From assembly GCA_035717485.1 (NCBI GenBank), contig DASTIQ010000071.1, positions 4,651 through 68,650 of the forward strand: DNA of 64,000 nucleotides, written 5' to 3'. Under the pieces are notes generated by a model, which ran no database searches, was not told the DNA's origin, and worked only from the letters and a program-made list of their open reading frames with translations. The position numbers and the translations under genes are program-made. Shown here in pieces: positions 23,252 to 63,302 of the stretch; within the stretch, counting starts at the first letter, position 1, and each line of letters starts with the position of its first letter. Origin of the DNA: Thermoanaerobaculia bacterium (GTDB lineage Bacteria; Acidobacteriota; Thermoanaerobaculia; UBA5066; DATFVB01).

Positions 23252-23265
23252 GCGTCAGTTCCTTC

Positions 23266-25458
23266 TCAACGCCAGATCAGGTACGCCGCGACGAGGAGGA
23301 GGAAACCTCCCCCCATCACGAACGCGTAGTTCTGCACGCGCCCCGTCTGCGCGCGCCGGAGCCCGCGGTAACCGGCCTGGAGCGTGCCGGCGACGCCGTT
23401 GACCATCCCGTCCACGACGTACTGGTCGAAGATCGAGGAGATCCAGGAGAGCGCCATCACGACGTTGCGGACGCCGTGGACGAAGAAGCCGTCGACGACC
23501 CGCGCGTCGAAGTCCCACAGGAACCGCCCGCCGCCCTTCCCGAGCCCCTCGACGAAGAGCGCGTCGTACGCCTCGTCGACGTAGTACTTGTTGAACACGA
23601 TCCGGTACGCCGCGGGGAACCGCTCCGCGAGCCGCCGCGGCCGCTCGAAGGCGCTCTCCCCCGTGTAGAAGCGCCACGCGATTCCGATCCCGATCACGGC
23701 GACGGTGACCGAGAAGACCATGAGCGCGGCTTCGGTGCCGTGCGACAGGTGCGCCTCGACCGCCTCGCCCGGAATCTCGAGGAAGATCGGCGACAGCCAG
23801 CGCGCGAGCGCGTGGGGAACGCCCACGATCCCGGAGAGCACCTCGGGGAGCCCGACGAAGCCGGCGAGGACCGCGCCGACGGCGAGGATCCGGAGGGGCC
23901 ACGTCATCGTGCCCGGGGATTCGTGCAGATGGTGCCTCTGCTCCTCCGTTCCCCGGAACGTCCCGGTGAACGTCATGAAGTAGCTGCGGAACATGTAGAA
24001 GGCGGTCATCACCGCCGCGACGATCGCGATCCCCCACAGGAAGACGCGGTGGTGGCCGAACGTCTCGCCGAGGATCTCGTCCTTCGAGAAGAATCCGGCG
24101 AAGGGGAAGATGCCCGCGATCGCCAGCGTCGAGACGAGGTACGTCCAGCGCGTGGTCGGCAACGCCTCCTTCAGCCCGCCCATCTTCCGCATGTCCTGCT
24201 CCCCCGCCATCGCGTGGATCACGGAGCCCGATCCGAGGAAGAGACACGCCTTGAAGAACGCGTGGGTGAAGACGTGGAAGATGCCGCCGACGAACGCGCC
24301 GACGCCGCATCCGAGGAACATGTAGCCGAGCTGGGAGATCGTCGAGTAGGCCAGCACTTTCTTGATGTCGTTCTGGACGAGCGCCATCGACGCGGCGAGG
24401 ATCGCCGTGACGCAGCCGACGATCGCGACGACGTTCATCGCCGCGGGCGCAATCCGGAAGAGCACGTTGCACCGGACGACCATGTAGATGCCGGCCGTGA
24501 CCATCGTCGCCGCGTGGATCAGGGCGGACACGGGCGTCGGCCCCGCCATCGCGTCCGGCAGCCAGACGTAGAGGGGCACCTGCGCGGACTTCCCCATCGC
24601 CCCGACGAAGAGGCAGAGGCAGATCACGGTCGCCCAGGGCGCGAACCGCTCGGGATGCGCCGCGGCCGCCGGGAAGACGCTCCCGAAATCGAGCGAGCCG
24701 AAGATCGCGAAGATCCCGAAGATCCCGAGCGCGAAACCGAGATCGCCGATGCGGTTCACGACGAAGGCCTTCTTCCCCGCGTCGGCGGCGAAGTCTTTCT
24801 CGTAGTAGTAGCCGATGAGCAGGTAGGAACAGAGTCCCACGCCCTCCCACCCGGTGAACATCACGACGAAGTTCGCGCCGAGCACGAGGAGGAGCATCGA
24901 GAACATGAACAGGTTCAGGTACGCGAAGAAGCGGCCGAAGCCCTCCTCGTGCCCCATGTACCCGACCGAATAGACGTGGATGAGGAAGCCGACGAAGGTG
25001 ACGAAGGAGATCATCAGCGCCGAGAGCGGATCGAGCCGGAAGGCCCAGTCGACCGAGAACGCGGCCGTTCCCCCTCCCCGCAGCGCGTTGACCCCCTGCG
25101 GGATCCACGTCGCGATCCTCACGACGTGCGCGTGGGCGAGACCTTCCGTCTTCACCCAGTCCAGGATCGCCGCGAACGCGAGGAGGCACGAGAGGCCCGT
25201 CGTCGCGAGCGAGACGAACACGTGCGCGCCCTTGAACGGAACGTGCGGGTGCTGGTCGACGTGCGCCGACGGCGCGGACGCGTGCGGCGGGGCGTCGTCG
25301 CCCGTTGCCGGAGACGGCGCCGCTTTCGCTTCCGTCGAGTGCGCCTCGTGGCCGTGCTGCGGCTCGCCGTGCGTGCGATGCGAAACGAGATAGAGGATCC
25401 CGTTGACGAGGACCCCGGCGAGCGGGAGGACCGGGATCAGCCAGAGCAGGTCGCGCAC
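23266..25458 (-). CDS. nuoL: NADH-quinone oxidoreductase subunit L
   Basis: Motifs GAMGKSAQVPLYVWLPDAMAGPTPVSALIHAATMVTAG and LAYSTISQLGYMF, plus a C-terminal lateral-helix region. A His-rich insertion follows TM1. Confidence 0.92.
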   Translation of the reverse strand: MRDLLWLIPVLPLAGVLVNGILYLVSHRTHGEPQHGHEAHSTEAKAAPSPATGDDAPPHASAPSAHVDQHPHVPFKGAHVFVSLATTGLSCLLAFAAILDWVKTEGLAHAHVVRIATWIPQGVNALRGGGTAAFSVDWAFRLDPLSALMISFVTFVGFLIHVYSVGYMGHEEGFGRFFAYLNLFMFSMLLLVLGANFVVMFTGWEGVGLCSYLLIGYYYEKDFAADAGKKAFVVNRIGDLGFALGIFGIFAIFGSLDFGSVFPAAAAHPERFAPWATVICLCLFVGAMGKSAQVPLYVWLPDAMAGPTPVSALIHAATMVTAGIYMVVRCNVLFRIAPAAMNVVAIVGCVTAILAASMALVQNDIKKVLAYSTISQLGYMFLGCGVGAFVGGIFHVFTHAFFKACLFLGSGSVIHAMAGEQDMRKMGGLKEALPTTRWTYLVSTLAIAGIFPFAGFFSKDEILGETFGHHRVFLWGIAIVAAVMTAFYMFRSYFMTFTGTFRGTEEQRHHLHESPGTMTWPLRILAVGAVLAGFVGLPEVLSGIVGVPHALARWLSPIFLEIPGEAVEAHLSHGTEAALMVFSVTVAVIGIGIAWRFYTGESAFERPRRLAERFPAAYRIVFNKYYVDEAYDALFVEGLGKGGGRFLWDFDARVVDGFFVHGVRNVVMALSWISSIFDQYVVDGMVNGVAGTLQAGYRGLRRAQTGRVQNYAFVMGGGFLLLVAAYLIWR

Positions 25459-25462
25459 CGCG

Positions 25463-25768
25463 TCAGCCCTCCATCGTGTCGGCTTCGTCGACGTTCAACG
25501 TCTTCCGCTGCCGGTAGAGGGAGATGATGATCGCGAGGCCGATCGCCGCCTCGCCCGCCGCGATCGTGATCACGAAGACGGAGAAGATCTGCCCGGTCAG
25601 GTCGCTGAGCCGTCTCGAGAACGCGATCAGGTTCAGGTTCACCGCGTTCAGCATCAGCTCGATCGACATCAGGACCGTCAGGAAATTCCGCCGCACGAGC
25701 ACTCCCACGAACCCGATCGTGAAGATCAGGAACGACAGAGCGAGGTAGTCGTTGATCGTGACGTTCAT
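25463..25768 (-). CDS. nuoK: NADH-quinone oxidoreductase subunit K
   Basis: 101 aa with 3 TM helices. Conserved LMSIELMLNAVNLN and VITIAAGEAAIGLAI. Confidence 0.92.
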   Translation of the reverse strand: MNVTINDYLALSFLIFTIGFVGVLVRRNFLTVLMSIELMLNAVNLNLIAFSRRLSDLTGQIFSVFVITIAAGEAAIGLAIIISLYRQRKTLNVDEADTMEG

Positions 25769-25790
25769 CGGCGAATCCTCCCGGCCCCCA

Positions 25791-26345
25791 TCAGTCCATC
25801 TTCTCGACGGACCGGCGCCCGAGCACGACCGCGCCGACGATCGCGACCAGGAGGAACACGGAGGCGATCTCGAACGGCAGGAGGTACTCGCGGTAGAGGC
25901 CCCAGGCGACCGCCTGGCTGTTGCCGAGGACCCGTCCCGCGACCGTGCGGAACGCGTCGGGGGAGAACGGCGCCGCTCCGCCGATCGGGTCGAGCACGAG
26001 CTGCGCGTCGAAGAGGACGTTCAGGACGAATCCGAGGACGACCGCGGCGACGATCTGCTTCTGGTAGGGCTCCGTCTGCGGCAGCCGCTGGACGTTGACG
26101 AGCATGATCACGAAGAGGAAGAGCACCATGATCCCGCCCGCGTAGACGAGGATCTGGACGGCGCCCACGAACTCGGCGCTCTCGAGGAAGAAGATCCCGG
26201 CGACCATCAGGAAGGTCGCCAGGAGGAAGAGCGCCGAATGGATCGGGTTCCGGGCGAGCACCACCGAGATCGCGCAAACGACCGCGACGAGGGCGAAGAT
26301 CGCGAAGATCCCGCCGGAGAGCCCGGTGAGGAGCGCGTCGGTCAC
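25791..26345 (-). CDS. nuoJ: NADH-quinone oxidoreductase subunit J
   Basis: Motifs NPIHSALFLLATFLMVAGIFFLESAEFVGAVQILVYAGGIMVLFLFVIML. Confidence 0.9.
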   Translation of the reverse strand: MTDALLTGLSGGIFAIFALVAVVCAISVVLARNPIHSALFLLATFLMVAGIFFLESAEFVGAVQILVYAGGIMVLFLFVIMLVNVQRLPQTEPYQKQIVAAVVLGFVLNVLFDAQLVLDPIGGAAPFSPDAFRTVAGRVLGNSQAVAWGLYREYLLPFEIASVFLLVAIVGAVVLGRRSVEKMD

Positions 26346-26349
26346 TTCT

Positions 26350-26829
26350 TCACTTCCCCTGCTCGGTGATCGTGAACGGCTTCACGTTCTCGTCCCACTC
26401 GGTGAGCTTGTCGATTCCCAGGTAGAGCGCCTCGTTCCGCTCGTACGTCGCGAGCTCGTACGTCTTCGTCGTGAGCCAGATCGACTTGGGAACGGTGGGG
26501 CAGGCTTCCTCGCAGAGCTGGCAGAACATGCAGCGCTTGAGATCCACGTCGAACCGGTCGAGCACCTTGACCGATTTCCCCGCCTCGTTCTTCTCGTTGT
26601 GCCAGTCGATGTAGATGATGTTGATCGGGCATTCGATCGCGCACAGCGTGCACTTGATGCACCGCTCCTCGTCGAGGCGGAACATGCCGCGGAATCGGTC
26701 GGAGGGCTCCTTCTTCTCCTCGGGGTACTGGATCGTCGTCTTCTTCGTGACGAGATGCCGCCCCGTGACGCCGAGCCCGTCGAAGAGGTCGAGGAGAGTG
26801 AGCCGGTCGAGCCATTTCTTGAGCTTCAC
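26350..26829 (-). CDS. nuoI: NADH-quinone oxidoreductase subunit I (2x[4Fe-4S])
   Basis: GTG at 26829 overlaps the nuoH stop (GTGA). Motifs CIKCTLCAIECP and CMFCQLCEEACP. Confidence 0.9.
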   Translation of the reverse strand: MKLKKWLDRLTLLDLFDGLGVTGRHLVTKKTTIQYPEEKKEPSDRFRGMFRLDEERCIKCTLCAIECPINIIYIDWHNEKNEAGKSVKVLDRFDVDLKRCMFCQLCEEACPTVPKSIWLTTKTYELATYERNEALYLGIDKLTEWDENVKPFTITEQGK

Positions 26830-27965
26830 GGGCGGGCCTCCGCCACGGCGAGCTTTCGCCGGAGCTTCGCGAGCAGGAAGAGGACGACGAAGAACGCGGT
26901 GAACACCCCGCCCAGAACCCGCAGTCCGCGGCCGTGGACGGTGTCGGCGAGCACGCAGCCGGCGACGACCATGATGTTGACCAGCGCCATCGGGATCAGC
27001 CATTTCCATCCGAGGTTCATCAGCTGGTCGAAGCGGTAGCGCGGGAAGGTCGAGCGGAACCAGATGTAGCAGAAGATGAAGAAGCCGACCTTCAGGAGGA
27101 ACCAGACGATCCCCGGCACCGCTCGCAGACCCGGGAGGAGATGCGGGAACGGCGGGAGCCATCCCCCGAAGAACAGCGTGACGGCGACCGAGGACACCAC
27201 GATCATGGCCGTGTACTCGCCGAGGAAATAGAACGCGAACTTGATCCCGGAATACTCCGTGTTGAAGCCGGAGACGAGCTCGGACTCCGCCTCCGGCAGG
27301 TCGAACGGATTGCGGTTCGTCTCCGCGACGCCCGAGACGAAGTAGAGGAAGAAGGAGAGGAGTCCCGGAAAGACGAACCAGAGGTGCAGCCGGTCCTGCA
27401 CGCGAACGATCTCGACGAGGGAGAGCGACCGCGACATGAGGAGCACGGCGACGATCGCGAGGCCCATCGGAACCTCGTAGGAAACGAGCTGCGCGGCGGA
27501 GCGGAGTCCGCCGAGGAGCGAGAACTTGTTGTTGGACGCCCAGCCTCCGAGGATGATCCCGTACACCCCGATCGAGGTGATCCCGAGGAGGAAGAGGAGC
27601 CCGACGTTCACGTCGGCGACCCAGAGCGGCGTCTCGACCCCGGCGATCCGGATGCTCTCGCCGAACGGGATGAGGGCGAGCGCGGTCAGGGCCGGGATGA
27701 CCGAGAGCACCGGCCCGAGGAAATGGCTCACTTTCTCGGCGCGGGTCGGCGTCAGGTCTTCCTTCGTCACGAGCTTCAGCAGGTCGGCGAGCCCCTGGAG
27801 GAGACCCTGCGGGCCGACGCGGTTGGGCCCGAGCCGCCCCTGCATGAATCCCATGATCCGGCGCTCCGCGTACACGATCACGAATCCGACGATCGCCGGC
27901 ACGACGAGGACGATCAGGAGGATCTTCACCGCCGTGAGAACGGTCTGGAGAGTGGCCGGGCTCAC
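26826..27965 (-). CDS. nuoH: NADH-quinone oxidoreductase subunit H
   Basis: GTG at 27965 overlaps the nuoD stop (GTGA). Motifs [65 protein letters not shown]. Confidence 0.92.
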
Positions 27966-29167
27966 CGGTCCACCTCTCCGAGCACGATGTCCACCGTTCC
28001 GATCAGCGCGACGAGGTCGGAGACGAGATGGCCGCGCGCGAGGCGCGGAAGCGCCTGCAGGTTGATGAGCGACGGAGGCCGCACGTGCAGCCGGTAGGGC
28101 TTGTTCGTCCCGTTCGAGACGAGGTAGAAGCCGATCTCTCCCTTCGGGGATTCGATGGAGGCGTACACCTCTTCGGCGACCGGCTTGATGACGCGCGGGA
28201 CCTTTCCCTTGATCTCGCCCGGCTCGAGACGGTCGAGGCACTGCCGGATGATCTTCGCCGACTGCCGCATCTCGGCGATGCGCACGAGGTAGCGGTCGTA
28301 CGTGTCCCCGTTCTTCCCGGTGGGCACGACGAAGTCGAGCTCGTCGTAGCACTCGTAGGGCTGCGCCCGCCGGAGGTCCCATTCCACGCCCGAGCCGCGG
28401 ATCACCGGGCCGGTGAGGCCCCACTCGATGCATTCCTCGGCCGAGATCACGCCGATCCCGACGGTCCGCTTCTTCCAGATCCGGTTGTCCGTGAGCAGGG
28501 TCTCGTAATCGTCGATCTTGCCCGGGAAGTCGTCGATGAACGCTCCGACGGCCTCGACCCAGCCGGGCGTGAGATCGAACGGCAGGCCGCCGATGCGCAT
28601 TCAGTTGAGCGTCAGGCGCGCGCCGCAGTACTCCTCGAAGAAGTCGAGGATCTGCTCCCGCTCGCGGAAGCAGTACCAGAACGGCGTCACCGCGCCGAGG
28701 TCGATTCCCGAAGTGCCCAGCCAAACGAGATGCGAGGAGAGCCGCTGCAGCTCGTCCAGGATCACGCGGATCAGCTGGGCTCGCCGGGGCACCTCGACGC
28801 CGAGGAGCTTTTCGACCGTCAGGCAGTACGCGTGGTTGCTCGTCGCCGCCGCGACGTAGTCCATGCGGTCGGTGTGCGGGATGGCCATCGGGTAGGTCTC
28901 GGTCTCGAAGAGCTTCTCGGTCCCGCGGTGGAGATAGCCGATGTCCGGGATCGCGTCGACGATCTTCTCGCCGTCGACTTTCAGCACGATCCGGAGCACG
29001 CCGTGCGTCGACGGGTGCTGCGGCCCGAAGTTGAGCTCCATCTCGGTGACGTCGAAGAGCGTCTTCGGCGCCGCCACCGTGCGCGCGGGAGGATGGTGCA
29101 GCCCGGCGGCCGCCTTCGCGCGGGCGGCGAAGTAATCGGCTTCGTCCTGCTCGGGGGTCCGGCTCAT
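27962..29167 (-). pseudogene. nuoD: NADH-quinone oxidoreductase subunit D interrupted by one in-frame TGA (28601-28603) followed directly by ATG
   Basis: ORFs 28601..29167 and 27962..28600 are in the same frame and together make a full NuoD (GPQHPSTHGVLRI, IGYLHRGTEK, ...GARLTLN-TGA-MRIGGL..., C-terminal DIVLGEVDR). The stop replaces the aromatic residue of the conserved GARxxxxY/W-xR-xGG block. Confidence 0.7.
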
Positions 29168-29243
29168 CCGTTCATTTCGCGCGTCTTTTCGACGCGACGG
29201 CTCCGTTCGCGCGCTTCCACGAGCCTCCCATCGGGTCCGTCGC

Positions 29244-29816
29244 TCACGAAAGCACTTTCCGATTCGGGTCGTCGGGCGCGGGACCGGCGCCGGCCGGCCA
29301 TTCCTCCGGGTAGATCGCGGCCCCCGTGTCGATCCCCTCGACCGGGAAGTCCTTGCGCAGCGGATGTCCTTCGAAGCCGTCCCAGGTGACGAGCCGGCGC
29401 AGGTCCGGGTGCCCCGAGAACCGGATGCCGAAGAGATCCCACACCTCGCGCTCCGACCAGTTCGCGGCGAGGAAGGTCGTCGCGATCGACGGGACCTCCT
29501 CCCCCTCGGCGCACCCGAGCTTCACCCGGATGCGGTCGTTCTTCGAGAAGGAATAGAAGTGGTACACGACGTCGAACCGCGGCTGGCGGTCGCGCCAGTC
29601 GACGGCCGTCACGTCGACGCAGTATTTGAAGTCCTGGACGTCCTTGAGATGCCGCGCGACGTCGACGATCTTCTCCCGCGGGACCGTGACCGTCACCTGT
29701 CGCGCGAATTCCTTCGCGGCGACCACCGCGCCCGGAACCGCCTGCGCGAGCGCGGCGACCCAGGGGTGCCCCGAAGCGTCGGTCGCGGCCGGTTTCGGCG
29801 CGGGCTTCTCGGCCAT
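29244..29816 (-). CDS. nuoC: NADH-quinone oxidoreductase subunit C
   Basis: Motifs [25 protein letters not shown] and GHPLRKDFP. Confidence 0.9.
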
Positions 29817-29817
29817 G

Positions 29818-30303
29818 TCAGGACGCCTTGCGGATGACCTTCATCCGGTCGATCTTCTTCTGGAGCTGGATGATTCCGTAAAGCAGCGCCTCCGGCCGGG
29901 GAGGGCAGCCGGGGACGTAAACGTCGACCGGAACGATCCGGTCCACGCCCTGGGTGACCGCGTACGTCCGGTACGGTCCGCCGCACGTCGCGCAGGAGCC
30001 CATGGCGATCACCCACTTCGGGTCGGGCATCTGGTCGTAGAGGCGTTTGACGACCGGCGCCATCTTCTCGACGACCGTTCCGGCGACGATCATGAGATCC
30101 GACTGCCGCGGCGTTCCGCGGAACACTTCCGCGCCGAAGCGCGCGAGATCGTGCCGCGCGTCCATGACCGCCATCATCTCGATCGCGCAGCAGGCGAGCC
30201 CGAACTGCATCGGCCAGATCGCGCTCCGCCGCGCCCAGTTGATGACCGAATCGACGGTGGTGGTGAGAACGTTTTCTTCGAACCGGTTGGCGAGGAGGCT
30301 CAT
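29818..30303 (-). CDS. nuoB: NADH-quinone oxidoreductase subunit B
   Basis: N2-cluster ligand motifs [29 protein letters not shown]. Confidence 0.92.
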
Positions 30304-30316
30304 GCGGCGGCGTCCC

Positions 30317-30673
30317 TCATGCCCACTGGAGCGCGCCGCGCTTCCAGGCGTAGAAGTAGCCGACGACGAGGATCGCCAGGAACACGAGCATCTCGACGAA
30401 CCCGAAGATCGCGAGCTTGTCGAGGAGGATCGCCCACGGGAAGAGGAAGATCGTCTCGACGTCGAAGACGACGAAGAGGACGGCGATCAGGAAATACCTC
30501 GCGGAAAATCGGTAATCGAAGGCGGTCGTCGGGGCTTCGATGCCGCATTCGTACGGCTCTCCCTTGGCGGGATTCGGGACGCCGTGCTGGAGGAGCCTCG
30601 CGACGACGATCGTCCCGATCGGCAGCGCTGCCGCGAGGATCGCGAACACCAGGATGAAGAAATACGATTCCAT
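30317..30673 (-). CDS. nuoA: NADH-quinone oxidoreductase subunit A
   Basis: Internal ATG at 30673 of ORF 30317..31360. 118 aa with 3 TM helices. Conserved YECGI and [12 protein letters not shown]. Confidence 0.9.
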
Positions 30674-30696: not shown

Positions 30697-31782
30697 TCAG
30701 GTGCGGGATGTCAATGTGAAGGAGTTCACAAGCGGGCCGATCCCCTTTGACTGCAGAAGAACGGAAAGATCGTCGCCGATTCCTTCCGGATCGAAGAGGC
30801 GGAGCGCTTCGAGGCGCCGGCCGCCGGCGTCTTCGAAGAGGCCCGCGCGCATGAGGAACTCGGATTGGCGCATCCGCGCCTCGGTCGCGAATCCTTCCGC
30901 CTCCCCCGCCCGGACGAGATCGTCCCAGTTCACGTGGGCGGTCAGGTCGACCTCGCCGGGACGTTCGAGCGGATCGCCGCCGCGGCGTCCCCGCGAATGC
31001 ACAGCGAGCGTCCCCCCCGGCCGCGCCGCGGAATGGTAGAGAACCGGCGCGCGATGCCCGTAATCGAACGCGACGAGCCGGCCGCGGGAAACGAGGCGGG
31101 CGAGCGAGCGATGCAGCGGCGCCGCCGCGAGATTGATCTCGGCCACCTGCCCTTCGGCGAGCTCGATCGCGAACCGCGCGAGATATTCGCCGAGCTCGAC
31201 CGGCGCCGGGCCCCCCGTCCACGCGAACGCGAAGCCGCCCGGGGACGTCGTGACGCCCAGCTCGACGAGCCTCCCTTCCGAGCGCCGTACCCGGTGGACG
31301 GGGAGCGCGTCGTAGAGCTCGTTCGAGAAGACCCATCCCTCGAACGGCTCGCTTTCCCACTCGCGGGGATCCGCCGCCACGCGCTCGGCGGCCCCCGCGG
31401 CCGCGATCGCCTCGCGCCCCGCCGCGGCACGCTCGATCGCGCGCAGCCGCGTCCGGCGCGACACCGCGGGAGCGACCTCGTCGAGCGCCGACCGAAAATC
31501 CCGCAGGAACGTCCCCGCGCCCGCCGCCGCCTCGCAGAAGACGATCTCGCCCGGCAACGCGAGCGCGTCCCGCGCGAAGACGCGGGCGACGGCCCGCGCG
31601 AAGAGGGGCGAGATCGTCGGCGACGTGACGAAATCGCCCCCGTCGCCGATCGCCGCCCGGCGCGCGTAGTACCCCTCGTCCGGGTCGTAGAGCGCGGCCT
31701 CCATGAAGTCGCGGAAAGAGATCGATCCCTCTCGCCCGATGCGGTCGATCAATCGGCGGGCGAGCGGAGAAACGCCGCTCAA
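30697..31782 (-). CDS. MidA/NDUFAF7-family (DUF185) SAM-dependent methyltransferase
   Basis: Family hallmarks ISFRDFMEAALYDPDEGYYA, GDFVTSPTISPLFA, FSNELYDALPVH, DLTAHVNWDDL. TTG start. It ends 23 nt upstream of nuoA on the same strand. Confidence 0.8.
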   Translation of the reverse strand: MSGVSPLARRLIDRIGREGSISFRDFMEAALYDPDEGYYARRAAIGDGGDFVTSPTISPLFARAVARVFARDALALPGEIVFCEAAAGAGTFLRDFRSALDEVAPAVSRRTRLRAIERAAAGREAIAAAGAAERVAADPREWESEPFEGWVFSNELYDALPVHRVRRSEGRLVELGVTTSPGGFAFAWTGGPAPVELGEYLARFAIELAEGQVAEINLAAAPLHRSLARLVSRGRLVAFDYGHRAPVLYHSAARPGGTLAVHSRGRRGGDPLERPGEVDLTAHVNWDDLVRAGEAEGFATEARMRQSEFLMRAGLFEDAGGRRLEALRLFDPEGIGDDLSVLLQSKGIGPLVNSFTLTSRT

Positions 31783-31786
31783 CCGG

Positions 31787-32884
31787 TCAGGGCGCCGGGG
31801 CGCGCGGCGCGGGCACGCGTTCCACGCGATAGACGAGGCCCAGCCCCGGGGTTCCCTTCGCCGCGAGCGCGTCGCGCGCGGCCTGCGCTTCTTCGCGGGA
31901 ACCGTAGTCGCCGAGCATCACCCGATACCAGAGACCCGGCGCGCCGAGATTGATCCCGATCACGCGCAGCGGGCGGGCGAGGACCTTCGAGAGGCGCCCC
32001 GCATCGCGTTCCGCGTTCTCCCGGCGCTGGTAGGAAGAGAAGTGGATCATCCAGACGGGAGCTCCCGTCCAGTCCGGCGAGACCATCGTCGAGCCGCGGG
32101 ATTCGGGAATCGCGGGAACCGGGGCGGCGGGGGGAGCCGCCGGAGAGGACCGGAGGGCTTCCGGCGTCGTCCGCGCGCCGGATCCGGACGAGCCCCCGTC
32201 CGAAGCCGGGACCACGGCCCCGCCCGATACCGGGACCGGGACGCCGGGCGCGGCCGGCCGGCCGTCCTCCGACGTCGCGCCGGCGGGCGGGACCGGCGGA
32301 ACCCGCCGGGTCTTCGCGAAGAACCAGACGCCACCGGCGATCGCGACCACGAGGAGGAACGCGACGAGCTTCCCGCCGCGCGGCGCTGCCGCCGGCCGAT
32401 CCACGGTTTCGAACGCGATCTCCTCGTCGCCCTCTTCCTCCGCCGCCTCCGGCTCCTCCGGGGGGGGAACCGAGCCCGCCGAAGGATGGAGGACGACGCG
32501 GCCCTCCCGTTCGGCCGGAAAAACCTCGAGGCCCGGCGCCGCGTCCGGTTCGCTTCCGAAAGGATCGTCCGGCCCGGCGGAAAAGGCGGTCTCGACGAGC
32601 GCCTCCTCCGGGAAGGGCGCATCCTCGTTCCACCCGCGCGACGCAATCCGTTCGCCGCCCATGTCCGCCGGAAGGAGGCGCACCGCGCGCTCCGCGAGCT
32701 CGGAGAGGGGGGCGGGTGCGAAACCGGTCCGCGTCAGCCGCAGCTCTTCGGCGCAGACCTGCTGGGCCGCCCGGAAGACCTCGCCGCGCCGCTCCGGCGC
32801 GATCCCGAGGCCCCGGACGATCGACTCGACGACTTCGGTGACCGTCGGAACTTTCCGGCGGTCCCGCGGACCGGGCTCCGGCAA
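31787..32884 (-). CDS. bitopic SPOR-domain protein (acidic cytoplasmic N-domain, TM, Pro-rich linker, C-terminal SPOR)
   Basis: TM helix LVAFLLVVAIAGGVWFFA. C-terminal SPOR-like domain (VWMIHFSSYQRRENAERDAGRL...GLWYRVMLGDYGSREEAQAARDAL). Proposed TTG start at 32884 after GGAGAGGAG; start uncertain. Confidence 0.65.
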   Translation of the reverse strand: MPEPGPRDRRKVPTVTEVVESIVRGLGIAPERRGEVFRAAQQVCAEELRLTRTGFAPAPLSELAERAVRLLPADMGGERIASRGWNEDAPFPEEALVETAFSAGPDDPFGSEPDAAPGLEVFPAEREGRVVLHPSAGSVPPPEEPEAAEEEGDEEIAFETVDRPAAAPRGGKLVAFLLVVAIAGGVWFFAKTRRVPPVPPAGATSEDGRPAAPGVPVPVSGGAVVPASDGGSSGSGARTTPEALRSSPAAPPAAPVPAIPESRGSTMVSPDWTGAPVWMIHFSSYQRRENAERDAGRLSKVLARPLRVIGINLGAPGLWYRVMLGDYGSREEAQAARDALAAKGTPGLGLVYRVERVPAPRAPAP

Positions 32885-32898
32885 GGGCTCCTCTCCGC

Positions 32899-33921
32899 TC
32901 AATCCGCGAGGCTCTCCCAGTCGGTCTCGGGCGCGTCGAGCGCGATCGCGAGGCCGCCGTTGGACCCGGCGAAGACCGGGTCTTCGACGGCGCGGACGCG
33001 GCCGCCCCCCATTTCGTCGAGCGTCTTCTCGAGGGCGGCCGCGAGGCCGGGAATCTGCGACCCGCCGCCGGCGAGAATGACGTTGTTCCGGACGTCTTCC
33101 TGGTATTCCGGCTCGACGCGCGAGATCAGGTCGAGCATCGTCTCCGAGATCGGGCCGAGCAGGCTCTCGCACGCGCGCCTCATCTCGGCGGTGATGTCGA
33201 GGTCCGTGGGCTTTCCGTGGACGGGCACCTTCACGACGACCGGCTGCTTCGGCTCTCCGACGAAGCTCCCCTTTTCCTTCCAGTCGCGCACCATGTAGAC
33301 CGAGAAGCGGCCGTCGGGCATCTTGTTGCGGACGAGGGTCGCGAGGTGCTCGTCGACGGCGTCGCCCGCGTTCGTGAGCGTCCGCTGGTCCTCCTCGGTC
33401 GGGTAGCGCCCGTTCATCACGCAGAAATCGGTCGTTCCGGCGCCGATGTCGATGATCATCGTGTGGAGGAGCGAATCCATCCCGTAGGCGACCGCGAATG
33501 GCTCCGAGACGATCATCAGGGAGTCGGCCATGCCGGTGACCGCGTTCCTCAGGTGCTGCTTGGACACGCGGAGCGCCTCGGCCGGAACGCCGACGACGGC
33601 GAAGACCTTCTGCCCTTCCCGGGCGCCGGCGAGCGAGATGAGGTGCCCGAGCAGCTCGCGGACGGCCTGCTCGTCCTTCTGCGAGCCTTCCTTGATGAGG
33701 CCCCGCTCGAGCGGGCGGTGGAGGTCGAGCATGGGGCGGTTGTCGAGCGCTTCCTTCCCGAAGAGCACCGCCTTCTTGACGACCTTCCGGGCGACCATGT
33801 CGACGGGCCACCCCACGTAGCTGTCGACGACGTGGCGCGCCCCGTTCGAGGCGGAAATGGAGCTTCGGGAGGTGCCGAGATCGATTCCGACCTGCAGCAC
33901 CTCGGTTTTCGGTTTGGTCAT
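32899..33921 (-). CDS. MamK-like actin-family (ASKHA) filament protein
   Basis: 340 aa. Phosphate-1 VGIDLGTSRSS. Blocks SYVGWPVDMV, DLHRPLERGLI, IIDIGAGTTDFCVMNGRYPTEEDQRTLTNAGDAVDEHL and NVILAGGGSQIPGLAAALEKTL line up block by block with my recollection of MamK rather than MreB. The ATG overlaps the amidase stop (ATGA). Confidence 0.75.
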   Translation of the reverse strand: MTKPKTEVLQVGIDLGTSRSSISASNGARHVVDSYVGWPVDMVARKVVKKAVLFGKEALDNRPMLDLHRPLERGLIKEGSQKDEQAVRELLGHLISLAGAREGQKVFAVVGVPAEALRVSKQHLRNAVTGMADSLMIVSEPFAVAYGMDSLLHTMIIDIGAGTTDFCVMNGRYPTEEDQRTLTNAGDAVDEHLATLVRNKMPDGRFSVYMVRDWKEKGSFVGEPKQPVVVKVPVHGKPTDLDITAEMRRACESLLGPISETMLDLISRVEPEYQEDVRNNVILAGGGSQIPGLAAALEKTLDEMGGGRVRAVEDPVFAGSNGGLAIALDAPETDWESLAD

Positions 33922-34937
33922 GAAACCCCTTTCCCCGCGGGAGCCGCGTCCCGCGCGAGCCGTTCGGCGGACGTTTCCGGATCGACGATGCGACGGATGC
34001 CGGCGTGGAGCGCGCGGGCGAGCTCGGAACGGTATTCCGGCGTGGCGAGCCGCCGCGCCTCGTCGGCGTTCGAAATGCACGAGATCTCCGCGAGCACCGC
34101 GGGCATGCGGGTCCCGACGAGGACGACGAGCGGCGCGGTCTTCACGCCGCGATTCTGAACGCGGTCGTTGACGTCCCGGAGAGCGTGGAAATACGCGGAC
34201 TGGAGCGTCTCGGCGATCCGGCGCGACTCCTCCTGACGGACGCCCACGTAGACTCCTTCGAGCAGCGTCCTGAAGTCCGCCAGCGAGTAGCCGGAGCCGG
34301 CGTTCTCCCCGCGCGCGAACTTCGCCGTTTCGGGATCGTTCGTGCCGCCGAGGTAGAACGTCTCGATCCCGACGCGATCCGGGACCGGCATCGAATTGAT
34401 GTGGATGGAGAGGAAGAGATCGGCGTTCTCGGCGTTCGCGATCTCGACGCGCCGCTCGAGCGAGAGCGCGCGATCGTCGGCGCGCGTCAGGACGACCGTG
34501 ACCGGAGCGTCCTTCAGCAGCGCGCGGAGCCGCTCGGCGACGTCGAGCGTGATCGTCTTCTCCTCGAGACCCTGCCGCGTCATCGCGCCGGGGTCGCCTC
34601 CCCCGTGGCCGGGGTCGATCACGATCTTCCGGACGGCGAGCCGGAAGAGAGACGGGTCGATCGCCTGCGGCGCCGGAAGCGCGGCGGTCCGGGGGACCGG
34701 CGACGCCGCCGCTCCGGCATCGGCCGTTCGCCGCCGGGAAACGGATGCCCGGACGCCGGGGGTCGCGATGGCGCCGGAGAAGGCGACCAGGAGCGTCGCC
34801 GCGAGCCCGCCGAGGAGCCATCCGTTGACCCCCCGGCGCCGCCGCCGGAGGCCGGCCGGAATCTCGCCGCGCACCGTGGCCAGGTTCTCCCGGACCAGAG
34901 CGCGGATCATCTGCTGCTTGAGGCGGTCTTTTCCCAT
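33918..34937 (-). CDS. membrane-anchored N-acetylmuramoyl-L-alanine amidase (Amidase_3, AmiC/CwlD-like)
   Basis: N-terminal TM helix. Catalytic domain IVIDPGHGGGDPGA, DLFLSIHINS, VLAEISCISN. Confidence 0.88.
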   Translation of the reverse strand: MGKDRLKQQMIRALVRENLATVRGEIPAGLRRRRRGVNGWLLGGLAATLLVAFSGAIATPGVRASVSRRRTADAGAAASPVPRTAALPAPQAIDPSLFRLAVRKIVIDPGHGGGDPGAMTRQGLEEKTITLDVAERLRALLKDAPVTVVLTRADDRALSLERRVEIANAENADLFLSIHINSMPVPDRVGIETFYLGGTNDPETAKFARGENAGSGYSLADFRTLLEGVYVGVRQEESRRIAETLQSAYFHALRDVNDRVQNRGVKTAPLVVLVGTRMPAVLAEISCISNADEARRLATPEYRSELARALHAGIRRIVDPETSAERLARDAAPAGKGVS

Positions 34938-35029
34938 GGGTCGCTGACCGTCAAGTGTAACAGGATGGGATCGATGGGGAGCCGTTCTTGCATGCGCAGC
35001 GGGAGGCGACCGAAAGAGCGCAACCTATA

Positions 35030-36643
35030 ATGGCCGGGCCGCGACGGAACCGCGGCGCGCCGGCGGCGAACGGCGGGACGGGGGAAGACGTGAGACCTCA
35101 GACTCTCGGGGAACTGAAGGAAAGCGGATATCGCGCGCGGAGCGTCAAGGACGAGCTCCGCGAGAACCTGATCGCCCGGCTCCGGCGGGGAGAGGATCCG
35201 TTTCCGGGGATCTTCGGCTATCGCCACACCGTCCTGCCGATGCTCCACAACGCGATCCTCGCGCGCCACGACATCATCCTCCTCGGTCTGCGCGGCCAGG
35301 CGAAGACCCGGCTCCTGCGCTCGCTCGTCAATCTCCTCGACGAGTGGCTCCCGGCGGTCGCGGGAAGCGAGGTCAACGAGAGTCCGTTCGAGCCGATCAC
35401 CGCGTTCGGGCGGCGGATCGTCGGGGAACGGGGCGACGAGACGCCGATCGTCTGGATTCCCCGCAGCGAGCGCTACCGGGAGAAGCTCGCGACTCCCGAC
35501 GTCACGATCGCGGACCTGATCGGCGACATCGATCCGATCAAGGCCGCGACCCAGAAGCGGACCTACTCCGACGAGGAGATCATCCATTACGGGATCGTGC
35601 CCCGCACGAACCGCGGGATCTTCGCGATCAACGAGCTCCCGGACCTGCAGCCGCGCATCCAGGTCGGGTTGCTCAACATCCTCGAAGAGCGCGATCTGCA
35701 GATCCGGGGTTTTCCCGTGCGGATCCCGCTCGACATCCTGCTCGTCTTCTCCGCCAACCCGGAGGACTACACGAATCGCGGGAACATCATCACCCCCCTG
35801 AAGGACCGGATCTCGTCGCAGATCCTCACCCACTATCCCGACGAGGTGAAGACGGCGCGCGCGATCACCGACCAGGAAGCGTGGACCGAGCGCCGCGGCG
35901 AAGTCGAGCTCGAGGTGCCCGAATACTTCAAAGAGCTCGTCGAGAAGATCGCCTTCGCGGCGAGGCAGTCCGAGTTCGTCGACCAGTCCTCCGGCGTCTC
36001 CGCCCGCATGCCGATCTCGGCTCTCGAAATCCTCTATTCGAACCTCGAGCGTCGCGGCATCCTGCGCGGCGAGAAGCGGGTGTTCCCGCGCCTTTGCGAT
36101 CTCCTCGCCTGCCTGCCGGCGATCACCGGGAAAGTCGAGGTCGTCTACGAGGGAGAGCAGCAGGGAACGGAAGTCATCGCGAAGAAGCTCATTTCCGGCC
36201 CGATCGCCGATCTCTTCAAGGAAAAGTTCCCCTCCGTCGATTCGGGGCGGCGCACCGAGCGCGCCCGGACGCCACCGCCCGAAGAGTCCGACGAGCCGCA
36301 GCCCCGGGCCCGTTCGCGCTTCCCCGCCGAGGAACCGGACAAGCTGAATCCCGTGTACCGGGAAATCGTCGACTGGTTCGCCGCCGGCAACCGCATCGAC
36401 ATCTCCGACGAGTCCTCGTTCGCGGACCACGTGAAAGCGCTCGAGTCCGTCCCCGGGCTCCGCCGCGTCGCCGAGGAGCACTTCAAGACGGCCTCCCGCG
36501 AGGAGGCGGCGCTCGCGATGGAGCTCGTCCTCGAGGGACTCACGCAGAACCTGAAGATCGCCCGCGAGGACCTGGACTCGAAGATCAGCTACAAAGAAAT
36601 GTTGAAGTTCAACCTGGTCCGGCAGCGCACACCCGTCAGCTAG
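35030..36643 (+). CDS. AAA+ ATPase of the Mg-chelatase (ChlI/BchI)-like clade
   Basis: Variant Walker A LLGLRGQAKTRLLRSL. Walker B / sensor region GIFAINELPDLQPRIQVGLLNILEE, then LLVFSANPEDYTNRGNIITPLKDR. The ATG at 35030 is chosen over the track start at 34988. TAG stop. Confidence 0.75.
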   Translation: MAGPRRNRGAPAANGGTGEDVRPQTLGELKESGYRARSVKDELRENLIARLRRGEDPFPGIFGYRHTVLPMLHNAILARHDIILLGLRGQAKTRLLRSLVNLLDEWLPAVAGSEVNESPFEPITAFGRRIVGERGDETPIVWIPRSERYREKLATPDVTIADLIGDIDPIKAATQKRTYSDEEIIHYGIVPRTNRGIFAINELPDLQPRIQVGLLNILEERDLQIRGFPVRIPLDILLVFSANPEDYTNRGNIITPLKDRISSQILTHYPDEVKTARAITDQEAWTERRGEVELEVPEYFKELVEKIAFAARQSEFVDQSSGVSARMPISALEILYSNLERRGILRGEKRVFPRLCDLLACLPAITGKVEVVYEGEQQGTEVIAKKLISGPIADLFKEKFPSVDSGRRTERARTPPPEESDEPQPRARSRFPAEEPDKLNPVYREIVDWFAAGNRIDISDESSFADHVKALESVPGLRRVAEEHFKTASREEAALAMELVLEGLTQNLKIAREDLDSKISYKEMLKFNLVRQRTPVS

Positions 36644-36902: not shown

Positions 36903-37661
36903 ATGACCGACACGAAGACCAACCTCCGCGTTCGCATCCGATCGGGCGGAAAGCTCCTCGGGTGCTTCCTGACCTGGCCGGTCGGCGGAGCGGTCGAGCT
37001 CCTCGGGCTCGCCGATTTCGATTTTGTCGTCGTCGACGTCGAGCACGGATTCCACGACATCGAATCGGTCGAGAACCTCGTGAGGGCGGCCGACGTCGCC
37101 GGGATCGGCGCGATCGTCCGGCCGCCGCGCTTCGACTCGGACGTCGTGTGCCGCGCCCTCGATGCCGGCGCGGCGGGCATCCTCGCGCCCCGGGTCGGAA
37201 GCGCGACGGACGCGAAGACCACCGTCGAGAACATCAAGTTCGCCCCCGAAGGGCGCCGCGGTCTCGGCGGCGTCCGCGCCAACCGGTACGGCACGCAGCC
37301 CCTCGCCGAGTTCGTCCGCGAATCGAACGACCGGACGGTCGTCGCCGTCCAGATCGAGACGCCGGGAGCGCTGGACGAAGTCGGGGCGATCGCCGCGCTC
37401 CCGGGAGTGGACGTCCTTTTCGTCGGCCCGAACGACCTGACGCAGGCGCTCGGCATTCCCGGGCGGGTCGACGACCGGCGCTACCTCGACGCCCTGAGCC
37501 GGGTCGCGCAGGCCGCCGCGGACCACGGCAAGGCGGCGGGAATCATGCTCGGCCGCCGCGAGCAGATCCCCGCGCTCGCCGAGACCGGCTACCGCTTCTT
37601 CACGACGAGCGACCGGACACTCATGCTGGAGTCGGCGCGCGCGTGGCGCAGCGCGCTATAG
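36903..37661 (+). CDS. HpcH/HpaI family aldolase
   Basis: Motifs DFDFVVVDVEHG, VRPP, VAVQIETPGAL, VDVLFVGPNDL. Confidence 0.82.
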   Translation: MTDTKTNLRVRIRSGGKLLGCFLTWPVGGAVELLGLADFDFVVVDVEHGFHDIESVENLVRAADVAGIGAIVRPPRFDSDVVCRALDAGAAGILAPRVGSATDAKTTVENIKFAPEGRRGLGGVRANRYGTQPLAEFVRESNDRTVVAVQIETPGALDEVGAIAALPGVDVLFVGPNDLTQALGIPGRVDDRRYLDALSRVAQAAADHGKAAGIMLGRREQIPALAETGYRFFTTSDRTLMLESARAWRSAL

Positions 37662-37874: not shown

Positions 37875-38960
37875 ATGCGGTACCGCTACCAGGACTACCC
37901 GGTCGACCTCCTCCGTCAGCTCCTCACCCAGGACGAGCTCACGAAGCTCTTCTGGCAGCTCGTGCTCCAGACGGGCGGAGACGTCGAGGAGGCGCTTCGG
38001 TGGATGGAATACCTGCAGGAGCGCGGTCTCATCGATCCCTCGATCGACCTCGGGAAGTTCCGCGAGGAGCTGGAGAAGCGCGAGCTGATCGAGAACCGGG
38101 GCGGCGCGGCGGTGCTGACCGGCGCCGCGGAACGCCAGATCCGCCGGCAGGCGCTCGAGGAAGTCTTCTCGTCGCTCAAGAAATCGGGGGCCGGCTATCA
38201 CGCGACCCCGAAGACGGGGACGGGAGGCGACCTCGTCCCCGAGACCCGGCCCTACGAATTCGGCGACAACCCGACCGCGATCGACGGCGTCCGGACGATC
38301 GGCAACGCCGTCCGGCGCGACGCCACGGAGATCGACCTGCGCGAGGAGGATTTCGAGGTTTATTCGACCGAGCATCAGACGTCGTGCGCGACCGTGATCG
38401 CGATCGACATCTCGCATTCGATGGTCCTCTACGGGGAAGACCGGTTCACGCCGGCGAAGAAGGTCGCGCTCGCGATGGTCGAGCTCATCCAGGCGAAGTA
38501 CCCGAAGGACACGATCGACGTCGTTCTCTTCGGCGACGATGCGAAGCGGATCCCGATCTCCGAGATCTCGAAGACGCAGGTCGGCCCCTTCCACACGAAC
38601 ACGAAGGCGGGACTCGCGCTCTCGCGGAAGATCCTGCAGCACAAGAAGAACCCGAACAAGCAGATCTTCATGATCACGGACGGCAAACCGTCCGCCATCT
38701 TCGATCGCGGCAAGCTCTACAAGAACCCGTTCGGGCTGGATCTCAAGATCGTCAACCGCACGCTCGAGGAAGCGGACGCCTGCCGCCGCGACGGCATCAC
38801 GATCACGACGTTCATGATCGCGACCGACCAGTATCTCGTCGAGTTCGTCGAGAAGCTCACGAAGATCAACCGCGGGCGGGCCTACTACGCGTCGCCCTAC
38901 AACCTCGCGGAATTCCTCTTCTCGGACTACATCCGGAACCGGAAGAAATTCCTCCACTGA
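37875..38960 (+). CDS. VWA domain protein (CoxE/BchD-like partner of the AAA+ ATPase)
   Basis: MIDAS motif VIAIDISHSM, then ITDGKPSA and TITTFMIA. The N-terminal helical domain is typical of CoxE-like VWA proteins. Confidence 0.8.
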   Translation: MRYRYQDYPVDLLRQLLTQDELTKLFWQLVLQTGGDVEEALRWMEYLQERGLIDPSIDLGKFREELEKRELIENRGGAAVLTGAAERQIRRQALEEVFSSLKKSGAGYHATPKTGTGGDLVPETRPYEFGDNPTAIDGVRTIGNAVRRDATEIDLREEDFEVYSTEHQTSCATVIAIDISHSMVLYGEDRFTPAKKVALAMVELIQAKYPKDTIDVVLFGDDAKRIPISEISKTQVGPFHTNTKAGLALSRKILQHKKNPNKQIFMITDGKPSAIFDRGKLYKNPFGLDLKIVNRTLEEADACRRDGITITTFMIATDQYLVEFVEKLTKINRGRAYYASPYNLAEFLFSDYIRNRKKFLH

Positions 38961-57033: not shown

Positions 57034-57106
57034 GGAAGCCTCCTCTGTAAAACGACAGTTGTCGATATTCGAAACGAGCGCCGGCGACGCCGGAAGGATC
57101 GGGGTT

Positions 57107-58066
57107 TCATCGGCGGACGACCGCCGCCGCGCCCGCGGGCCGGGAGCCGGGCCGGACGCCCGGAAGGAAGAGCAACGCGGCGCCCGCGATCGCGAGCGCG
57201 GGCCCCGGTCGCCTGCGGACGGCGGAGACGCCCCCGACCAGGCGCCGCAACCGCCTCTCGAGATCGGTGCGCCGACCGGTCGCGGCGACGGCGGAATTCC
57301 GCCGGCCGTTCGCCAGCGCGGCCGCCGAAAGCAGCGCCCGTCCGTACGCGCGGACATCGCCGCCCCGGCGCCGCAGCACTTCCTCGTCGCAGCTCTCCTC
57401 CCGCCGCTCGCGGCGCTGCGCCGCGAGAACCCGGACGAGCGGGTTGAACCACCAGAGCGCCACCACCGCCGATTCGATCGCCGTGATCCCCGGATCCCTG
57501 CGGCGGAGGTGCGCGAGCTCGTGCGCGAGGATCCAGTCGCGCTCCGGCTCGGGCATGGAGCGAAAAACGGCATCGGGGAGGAGGATCGCCGGCCGGACGC
57601 CGCCGACCGCGCACGGCACGGGCATCTCCGCGGAGACGAGGAGCTCCGGCGGGTACGGGAGGCCGAAGCGGCGGGCGAGATCCGGCAAGGACGGCGACTC
57701 CGCGGGAACGGCATCCCGTCGGAGCCGCCGAACCCGGCCGCGTTCCCGGGCGAGGCGGACGAACGCGACGCCGGCGCCCGACGCGTGCAGGACGGCGACC
57801 GCGGCGAACACGGCGGCGGCGCCCGCTCCCAGGCGGCCGCCGGGCACGGCGGTGAACCGGCTGAAGACCCCGGTCGCGAAGGGGAGCATCGGAGGAACGA
57901 CGAATTTCAACAGCGCGACGCCGAGCAGCGCCGAGCGGAACTCCGGCGACCGGCGCCGCACGACGGCGGCGACCGCGAGAAGCACGGCCGCGGCCGCGCT
58001 CCCCTGGAGGGTCACGTGGATCAGATGCAGGGTCCACTCGGCGCCGAATGCGGCCGCCGCGCTCAC
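57107..58066 (-). CDS. BlaR1/MecR1-type M56 family peptidase (signal transducer)
   Basis: Multi-TM N-terminus with HELAHLRRRD zinc-protease motif. The ATG overlaps the blaI-like stop (ATGA). Confidence 0.82.
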   Translation of the reverse strand: MSAAAAFGAEWTLHLIHVTLQGSAAAAVLLAVAAVVRRRSPEFRSALLGVALLKFVVPPMLPFATGVFSRFTAVPGGRLGAGAAAVFAAVAVLHASGAGVAFVRLARERGRVRRLRRDAVPAESPSLPDLARRFGLPYPPELLVSAEMPVPCAVGGVRPAILLPDAVFRSMPEPERDWILAHELAHLRRRDPGITAIESAVVALWWFNPLVRVLAAQRRERREESCDEEVLRRRGGDVRAYGRALLSAAALANGRRNSAVAATGRRTDLERRLRRLVGGVSAVRRRPGPALAIAGAALLFLPGVRPGSRPAGAAAVVRR

Positions 58067-63134: not shown

Positions 63135-63302
63135 GGGCAACCGGCGCGGACCACGCATCGAGCCATGCGGACGCGGCCGGCCCGGCCGGGCTCGCCTTGC
63201 TCGCGCCTCGCCGCGCTTTCGGGTCGTTTCGGGAGCCTCGGTTTCGCGCGGAAACTCGTCCGGACAACCGAACCTGTTCCACCGTGCTCGAGGGAGAGCT
63301 TC

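Follow-up and report, generated by a model that had tools for sequence, protein, structure and literature searches.

In a 64-kb stretch of DNA from a Thermoanaerobaculia bacterium, hereafter the window, three genes tightly packed on the minus strand between positions 31787 and 34937 encode an amidase, an actin-like ATPase and a protein with a C-terminal SPOR domain. The reading that we favour, and to which we would assign a probability of roughly 0.55, is that this conserved operon couples a cytoplasmic filament of the MamK family to a periplasmic amidase of the AmiA/B/C type, the filament positioning the cleavage of peptidoglycan; it is built from comparisons of sequences and predicted structures. 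A check of the open reading frames (ORFs) found the three co-oriented genes that an earlier, sequence-only reading of this DNA had reported over this span. Gene 1 (34937-33918, 339 residues) encodes the AmiA/B/C-like Amidase_3 protein, gene 2 (33921-32899, 340 residues) the MamK-family actin-like ATPase and gene 3 (32902-31787) the SPOR protein, which counts 371 residues from a TTG at 32902 or 365 from a TTG at 32884. The stop of the amidase gene and the start of the actin gene overlap in an ATGA at 33918-33921, read from the sequence itself and already pointed out in the sequence-only reading, which had further placed the start of the SPOR gene 14 nt past the actin stop. The TTG in question (32884) exists, but the start at 32902 is likelier. 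In the orthologous genes of 25 loci the first codon is an ATG sharing bases with the actin stop (ATGA), a TTGA stands at the homologous position in the window (32899-32902) and in its closest relative (L001), and the N-terminus translated from 32902 (M-S-G-E-E...) aligns with the orthologs. The SPOR gene therefore probably starts at TTG 32902 and not at 32884, giving a protein of 371 residues and making both gene junctions four-nucleotide overlaps; the residue numbers used below for this protein follow the 365-residue version. The arrangement is far beyond chance.

Profile and structure-database comparisons indicate that the actin belongs to the MamK family and not to MreB. It scores 382.4 bits against the NCBIfam MamK model NF040964, whose curated cut-off of 400 it does not reach, as compared with 65.6 and 53.5 bits against the MreB models PRK13927 (cut-off 293) and TIGR00904 (cut-off 365.75); among proteins of the PDB, MamK 5LJW gives 252 bits, BeeR 159 and MreB 1JCE 46. 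The NCBIfam model of BeeR (226 bits, cut-off 530) and the Pfam family FtsA (19.9 bits, cut-off 31.8) stay below their thresholds. Residues 9-340 align without a gap to Magnetospirillum MamK (5LJW/5JYG), the motifs DLGTS, DIGAGTTD and GGGS are present, and in the PDB alignment E140 and D158 face the catalytic glutamate E143 and the phosphate-binding aspartate D161 of MamK. The sequence-only reading had likewise preferred MamK over MreB, quoting the blocks GIDLGTSRSS, SYVGWPVDMV, DIGAGTTDFCV...EEDQRTLTNAGDAVDEHL and LAGGGSQIPGLAAALEKTL; all of them are in the sequence, and the profile and structure searches grouped the protein with MamK, a grouping with MreB not being obtained. The relation to the NCBIfam family itself is borderline and is best described as sister-level: the clade of amidase-linked actins defined below scores between 374 and 425 bits against the MamK model, and its Nitrospira member P0123 passes with 425. 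Only eight residues precede the first strand, and neither end carries an extension fit for membrane targeting: no amphipathic N-terminus of the MreB type was seen in the sequence or in the PDB alignment, nor a disordered N-terminal domain as in BeeR, nor a C-terminal membrane helix such as that of FtsA. With no intrinsic membrane anchor, as in MamK, attachment to the membrane must go through partner proteins.

In public annotation these actins are called 'rod shape-determining protein MreB', which would make the protein a cytoskeleton of elongation like MreB, or a replacement for it, and the amidase a hydrolase of elongation. Pfam MreB_Mbl does match the actin with 71 bits, expansion of the wall needs hydrolases, and no further actin gene turned up in the window. 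Yet the MamK family scores some 190-320 bits above MreB in the profile and PDB comparisons, which rules out an MreB identity, and mreC, mreD, rodA and pbp2 adjoin the actin in no examined locus, being found neither in the gene tables of these loci nor in the Pfam scans of the window. The missing amphipathic N-terminus, the cell-separation type of the amidase and the SPOR domain of the third protein in the window's lineage, a domain class represented among septal proteins by, for example, FtsN and DamX, also speak against a function in elongation, which we regard as improbable; the MreB label on these actins is misleading.

The partner enzyme is an Amidase_3 protein, as the sequence-only reading had stated (Pfam E=1e-48, residues 105-315), and neither an AMIN domain nor any other Pfam domain was detected in it. 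Its catalytic domain (residues 104-318; 33984-34628, minus strand) is predicted by AlphaFold2 (AF2), in a model built on 50 homologs, with a local confidence score (pLDDT) above 90. No substitution of the zinc ligands or the catalytic glutamate (H111, E126, H179 and E284) occurs in the 50-sequence alignment, and all four align to the corresponding residues of AmiA. Within this domain, residues ~197-256 (34170-34349, minus strand) form an insert of the regulatory type, homologous to the blocking or interaction helix domain of AmiA/B/C: the protein aligns without a break through this region with Escherichia coli AmiA, AmiC and AmiB, whereas amidases devoid of the insert (5EMI, CwlV, CwlD) give an alignment that is split in two or ends at about residue 200. 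AF2 places helices at residues 202-213, 219-229 and 232-254 of the insert, in which E211, N212, S215, Y217, D221, E237 and S238 are invariant across the same alignment. The best Foldseek match of the model is autoinhibited E. coli AmiA (8C2O, template modelling score 0.84), and the sequence of 8C2O aligns over its full length with 103 bits. The enzyme is thus AmiA/B/C-like and carries the regulatory insert, as far as sequence and model can tell, and blocking of the active site by the insert is a prediction. Since its scores against the NCBIfam equivalog models lie far below their cut-offs (AmiA 115 bits against 400, AmiC 92 against 700, AmiB 90 against 532), it is no ortholog of AmiA, AmiB or AmiC.

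The amidase-actin pair is widely conserved. When 185,579 species, each represented by one genome, were scanned for the actin, relatives came up in 313 stretches, of which the best 80 were fetched; these 80 loci all come from metagenome-assembled genomes, whose taxa are taken from the record labels. The amidase gene lies directly upstream of the actin gene in 79 of them, at distances mostly between -8 and +30 nt, and the eightieth locus begins inside the actin gene at a contig end. Their labels are Acidobacteriota (Thermoanaerobaculia, Holophagales, Terriglobia), Rokubacteria/Methylomirabilota, Binatia, Eisenbacteria and Deltaproteobacteria. In a Nitrospira representative with 53% actin identity the amidase gene overlaps the actin start, and on longer contigs the Nitrospira pair is an isolated bicistron between unrelated genes of opposite orientation. 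Approached from the amidase side, distant homologs (43-48% identity) have the actin directly downstream in two cases out of two, and in the most divergent group of loci amidase and actin are the only conserved genes. The pairwise identities of the two proteins are correlated (r=0.86), so the pair has been inherited as a unit, with the actin evolving more slowly: over 2211 pairs the mean identity is 74% for the actin and 59% for the catalytic domain of the amidase, and between Acidobacteriota and Rokubacteria 78% for the actin and 44-47% for the amidase. Sister and more distant MamK-like proteins (44-49% identity; Gemmatimonadota, Verrucomicrobiota and two further lineages) have no amidase as a neighbour, and the amidase-linked actins form one clade inside the MamK-like radiation in a neighbour-joining tree; linkage to the amidase thus defines a single clade of actins.

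The third gene has a narrower distribution. Hidden Markov models (HMMs) of the N-terminal domain and of the SPOR domain found the SPOR gene directly after the actin gene in 42 loci, all labelled Acidobacteriota and usually with an ATGA overlap. It is an addition confined to a subclade of Acidobacteriota and is absent from Rokubacteria, Binatia, Nitrospira and the others. The three-gene neighbourhood of the sequence-only reading therefore holds up in these 42 acidobacterial loci, but the core that is kept more widely is the amidase-actin pair: the triad is real and lineage-specific, the dyad is the core. A conserved third partner outside Acidobacteriota was sought by clustering six-frame ORFs of Rokubacteria and of the divergent groups, and only amidase and actin emerged as universal. 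The genes that follow the actin there, NUDIX-like in Rokubacteria and lipoprotein-like without a Pfam match in one locus (L090), appear to be unrelated. A hydrophobic protein of ~257 residues without a Pfam match, encoded close behind the actin gene but on the other strand (7093-7863, minus strand, of locus L073), recurs in 10 of the 24 loci of a divergent group lacking the SPOR gene (group C) and looks unrelated as well.

Such a distribution bears on two further explanations. The actin might be a genuine MamK that organises magnetosomes or another membrane organelle next to an unrelated amidase and SPOR protein, and it is true that its nearest solved structure is the magnetosome MamK, that its 382 bits lie just below the NCBI cut-off of 400, and that one Nitrospira member of the clade bears the NCBI name 'MamK family actin-like protein'. 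It is, however, only 39% identical to MamK of strain AMB-1 and falls in a separate clade in which linkage to the amidase is universal. Neither the annotated parts of the window nor the related neighbourhoods examined yielded a magnetosome gene, in agreement with the sequence-only reading, which had set the module outside any magnetosome context. Moreover, the clade is present in 313 species genomes, and the 80 listed loci are metagenome-assembled genomes labelled as non-magnetotactic lineages. We consider an organelle-organising role extremely unlikely.

The second explanation would see in the pair a relic of a mobile element, namely a phage or plasmid endolysin next to a partition actin of the ParM/Alp type, without a role in the host wall. 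Amidase_3 is common in endolysins, and PHROG endolysin families match the enzyme at E=1e-29; plasmids and phages often carry actin-like partition proteins, and the actin differs very little between loci whose labels name different phyla. The endolysin matches nevertheless stop at the regulatory insert and extend over no more than the initial half of the catalytic domain, tblastn of the actin found no match in 50,697 phage records and only five MreB-like ones of 27-29% identity in 72,556 plasmids, and the genes lie among housekeeping genes at a position that is syntenic in relatives. Furthermore, where the actins are 78% identical the amidases are only ~45-50% identical, which speaks for an old divergence with the actin under strong constraint, and against a transfer in recent times. 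Phage or plasmid origin was for these reasons rejected, and we would attach next to no probability to it.

If the filament is to position the amidase, some part of the enzyme has to meet it in the cytoplasm, and its N-terminus, which we find the most revealing feature, offers a candidate. Residues 2-27 (34857-34934, minus strand) form a conserved helix, predicted by AF2 over residues 2-22 with a pLDDT of ~80, the consensus of residues 4-27 being D-R-L-K-R-x-h-L-R-D/E-A-V-R-E-N-h-x-x-I-x-G-x-P-P. N18 is found in 67 of 67 amidases, E17 in 58, V15 in 57, and K7 and R12 in 54 each, G24 and P27 being near-invariant too; this conservation spans all phyla sampled, and the motif can still be discerned in the Nitrospira amidase. 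After the tail comes a hydrophobic segment (residues 39-62; 34752-34823, minus strand), preceded by RRRRR and with a Kyte-Doolittle value of 1.9, which could be a signal-anchor transmembrane helix or the h-region of a signal resembling those of the twin-arginine translocation (Tat) pathway. It is followed by a variable, Ala/Pro-rich and disordered linker (residues 63-103; 34629-34751, minus strand) that measures between 8 and 80 residues (median 45) from the hydrophobic segment to the DPGHG motif across the family. In divergent pairs the tail retains 46% mean identity as against 25% for the linker, whose identity is 25-29% over the family. Confidence of the AF2 model is low over residues 32-77, with pLDDT below 50 at 53-77. 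This conserved helix with its polar face is best explained as the contact of the amidase with the actin filament, a prediction that we make because the helix would lie on the cytoplasmic side and is encoded beside a filament protein devoid of any anchor of its own. As the periplasmic linker varies in length and composition, tethering or positioning of the enzyme is favoured over a rigid allosteric control, and ~45 disordered residues fit a tethered enzyme that needs to reach the wall.

It is therefore tempting to propose the following scheme. The actin, in which the motifs for binding and hydrolysis of ATP are intact and membrane-targeting elements of its own are absent, would polymerise under the inner membrane. 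The amidase would be held in that membrane by its N-terminal signal-anchor and would dock on the filament through its cytoplasmic helix of ~25 residues, so that the catalytic domain, at the end of its flexible linker of ~45 residues, would cut stem peptides from glycan only at sites that the filament occupies or passes. The likeliest place of cutting would be the division site, for the separation of daughter cells, because the amidase is of the AmiA/B/C type. Its activator might be the filament itself or a LytM factor encoded elsewhere in the genome. In the Thermoanaerobaculia/Holophagae lineage the three-helix N-terminal domain of the SPOR protein may dock on the filament too, while its periplasmic SPOR domain would bind the denuded glycans that the amidase yields. 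The filament-amidase assembly would in this way be retained where cutting began, in a self-reinforcing loop like that of FtsA, FtsN and AmiA/B/C in E. coli.

Several points weigh against this scheme. No division genes tie to the module, whose neighbours vary by lineage (here a MidA-like methyltransferase and nuo genes), and the SPOR protein, missing from most of the lineages that bear the pair, is not needed for the core function. The N-terminus of the amidase combines traits of a signal anchor with those of a Tat-like signal: residues 31-60 comprise the RRRRR, a Gly/Ala-rich hydrophobic stretch of 23 residues and AIA|T, and resemble the Tat signal of E. coli AmiA, so that they could be a cleavable export signal, in which case the tail cannot tether the mature enzyme. 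One may then imagine that the whole N-terminus is a long cleavable Tat or Sec signal and that the actin-fold ATPase binds, holds back or delivers the precursor, in the manner of the dedicated chaperones of Tat signal peptides, after which the mature amidase would be free in the periplasm. E. coli AmiA and AmiC are Tat substrates, two adjacent arginines occur at most 13 residues upstream of the hydrophobic segment in 49 of 67 amidases, an N-A-x-S/T motif closes the segment in many members, and the low AF2 confidence at residues 32-77 would suit a signal of this kind. On the other hand, the arginine patch deviates from the consensus S/T-R-R-x-F-L-K, the hydrophobic segments of the family are long and strongly hydrophobic for Tat (median Kyte-Doolittle value of the best 20-mer 1.81), and a disordered linker of ~45 residues has no obvious use on a free periplasmic enzyme. 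Such a control of export, the chief rival of our scheme, strikes us as rather doubtful, and the uncleaved, filament-bound amidase remains the reading that we prefer.

The SPOR protein has the architecture expected of a bitopic adaptor. Its N-terminal domain (residues 11-75; 32660-32854, minus strand) is modelled with pLDDT above 90 as a bundle of three helices (15-26, 30-52 and 60-69), presumably cytoplasmic and a candidate for a second docking site on the actin; its HMM matches only the gene directly after the actin, in the 42 loci mentioned above. The domain has no Pfam match at E<=1, and a Foldseek search with the full-length model returned SPOR matches only; a suspected resemblance to the N-terminal domain of SelA received no support from Pfam. 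A disordered acidic linker follows (residues 76-164; 32393-32659, minus strand; pLDDT below 60), the length of which is highly variable, the orthologs counting 345-640 residues; residues 76-172 contain 24 Asp and Glu and have an isoelectric point (pI) of 4.06. The acidic cytoplasmic domain of ~190 residues described in the sequence-only reading is accordingly to be amended: the linker is acidic indeed, but the cytoplasmic part measures ~165-170 residues and its first 75 are folded and near-neutral (pI 8.0). The remainder of that description, one transmembrane helix, a Pro-rich linker and a C-terminal SPOR domain, is matched by the hydrophobic-segment scan, AF2 and Pfam alike. The transmembrane helix spans residues 165-192 (32309-32392, minus strand; Kyte-Doolittle 2.25; AF2 helix 171-192), the Pro/Ala-rich periplasmic linker residues 193-265 (32090-32308, minus strand; pLDDT below 50), with 15 Pro and 14 Ala among the 78 residues 198-275, and the SPOR domain residues 266-356 (31817-32089, minus strand; pLDDT above 90), of which 278-344 match Pfam SPOR (38.7 bits against a cut-off of 21, E=1.2e-9). 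We place the N-terminus in the cytoplasm because the SPOR domain must reach the wall. The top Foldseek hits are the SPOR domains of RlpA 6I09, solved with denuded glycan, and 6I05 (probability 1.00). Within the segments IHFSSY and WYRV, H281, S284 and R321 are invariant and W319 nearly so; together we take these four residues to be the counterparts of the glycan-binding Q251, S254, W283 and R285 of FtsN. SPOR domains bind the denuded glycans that amidases make. No similarity to FtsN was seen outside the SPOR domain, and the names 'FtsN' and 'DedD' given to these proteins at JGI are automatic labels.

Among known systems, the closest parallel is the set formed by FtsA, FtsN and AmiA/B/C in E. 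coli. There, as proposed here, an actin-fold protein lies under the membrane, and the cytoplasmic tail of the bitopic FtsN binds the actin homolog FtsA (PMC7613929). Like the SPOR protein, FtsN has its N-terminal part in the cytoplasm and carries, beyond a flexible linker rich in proline, a SPOR domain at its C-terminus, and its amidase partners share with ours the regulatory insert and a denuded-glycan product that is the ligand of SPOR. The differences are nonetheless substantial, since the actin in the window is of the MamK family and lacks the C-terminal membrane helix of FtsA, AmiA/B/C are without the conserved cytoplasmic tail, the genes here form one operon, and the SPOR protein possesses a folded N-terminal domain of 65 residues, of no known family, and is itself missing from most lineages with the pair. 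Compared with MamK and its partners MamJ, MamY and McaA/B of magnetotactic bacteria, the actin is of the same family and aligns gap-free to 5LJW with 252 bits, and an acidic, Pro/Ala-rich disordered region in one partner recalls MamJ, but the identity of 39%, the separate clade and the missing magnetosome genes set the module apart, and with a peptidoglycan amidase and a SPOR protein as partners the cargo would be a wall enzyme and not an organelle. MreB and RodZ resemble the module in that a bitopic protein, by way of its cytoplasmic domain, connects an actin to the periplasm; theirs is another actin family, though, the helix-turn-helix domain of RodZ recruits synthases and not an amidase, and the mreCD/rodA context is absent here. 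Finally, FtsEX-EnvC-AmiA/B and ActH-LytH provide cases in which a cytoplasmic or membrane ATPase-linked control acts on an Amidase_3 enzyme whose site is blocked or inactive, LytH being moreover anchored in the membrane by its own N-terminus. They rely, however, on an ABC transporter with a LytM activator or on a polytopic activator and not on an actin filament; the module contains no LytM gene, no FtsEX-type partner and no ActH gene, and FtsX/MacB genes at 422-3869 of the window are 30 kb away and unrelated.

The roles ascribed to bacterial actins comprise wall synthesis (MreB), anchoring of the divisome (FtsA), segregation of DNA (ParM and relatives) and positioning of organelles (MamK), and we know of none that is dedicated to a wall hydrolase. 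MamK relatives have been reported in non-magnetotactic bacteria, where they are taken to have other functions: BeeR of Verrucomicrobiota, the function of which is not known (PMC11929497), a MamK-like actin of Saltatorellota (bioRxiv 10.1101/817700) and another of Thiomargarita/Beggiatoaceae (bioRxiv 10.1101/2022.04.11.487978). None of these three reports mentions an amidase partner, and BeeR differs further by its own disordered N-terminal domain, absent from the actin of the window, which scores only 226 of the 530 bits asked by the BeeR model. Our full-text literature searches found, among the papers searched, no link between a MamK-like actin and an amidase, and the sequence-only reading likewise knew of no description of the triad. 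What appears to be new is a MamK subfamily devoted to a peptidoglycan amidase, the SPOR adaptor being optional. The genetic tie of these actins to an AmiA/B/C-type amidase extends over lineages labelled Acidobacteriota, Methylomirabilota/Rokubacteria, Binatia, Eisenbacteria and Nitrospira, among them several environmental groups that are abundant and poorly studied. A contact between tail and filament, if true, would represent a new way of choosing where the wall is cut and a function of the MamK family outside magnetotaxis, in a compact two-gene system that could be tested in E. coli. A bolder extension, which we put forward only tentatively, holds that the clade of amidase-linked actins constitutes a third actin-based machine for wall remodelling beside the MreB elongasome and the FtsA divisome, with a dynamic and possibly treadmilling filament that carries or gates the hydrolase via the tail of that enzyme. 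In some of these little-studied phyla it might assume part of what FtsA/FtsN, or targeting by AMIN and LytM domains, do in cell separation. An actin identity as extreme as ~70-80% across such differently labelled phyla could then be the outcome of several binding constraints acting simultaneously.

Some observations concern other MamK-like proteins. Many of those in a library of representative proteins carry N-terminal extensions of ~190-900 residues, for a total length of 523-1232 (for instance P0133, P0134, P0136 and P0141), and the extensions of the four that were scanned contain no Pfam domain. Upstream of a sister MamK-like gene (P0127, 49% identity, no amidase), a protein of 287 residues with the appearance of a coiled coil is encoded at 32-895 (plus strand) of locus L096, which recalls the networks of coiled-coil and actin-like proteins described for the organisation of magnetosomes.

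As regards the surroundings of the module, the gene that follows it on the minus strand (30697-31782), 4 nt past the stop of the SPOR gene, encodes a MidA/NDUFAF7-like methyltransferase dependent on S-adenosylmethionine (Pfam Methyltransf_28, E=4e-37), with nuoA-B-C-D-H-I-J-K-L-M directly downstream of it (~21581-30657, minus strand). The order SPOR gene, methyltransferase, nuo is shared with three other loci (L082, L002 and L056), all of them among the closest relatives, and is therefore counted outside the module. Eukaryotic NDUFAF7 is an assembly factor of complex I, and the presence of a bacterial counterpart in front of the nuo genes is therefore suggestive. A scan for promoters and terminators was uninformative, with a single sigma-70-like site just before nuoA and terminators at chance level. 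Upstream of the amidase and divergent from it lie genes for a MoxR-like AAA_5 ATPase (34988-36643), an HpcH/HpaI aldolase (36903-37661) and a VWA-domain protein (37875-38960), all on the plus strand; the first and the last form a common pair, here with the aldolase between them, and the arrangement is kept in a relative of 95% identity (L082). A second set of NADH-dehydrogenase genes, ~30 kb from the first, includes a fused NuoC-NuoD (60993-63134, plus strand) and a NuoI-like 4Fe-4S protein (63165-63959, plus strand). The remaining annotated parts of the window, the GC content of which is 70%, hold housekeeping genes. Rfam gave no match in the window; a tRNA-Arg (CCG) lies at 57175-57249 on the minus strand, inside a predicted ORF (55381-57714) that is therefore over-extended.

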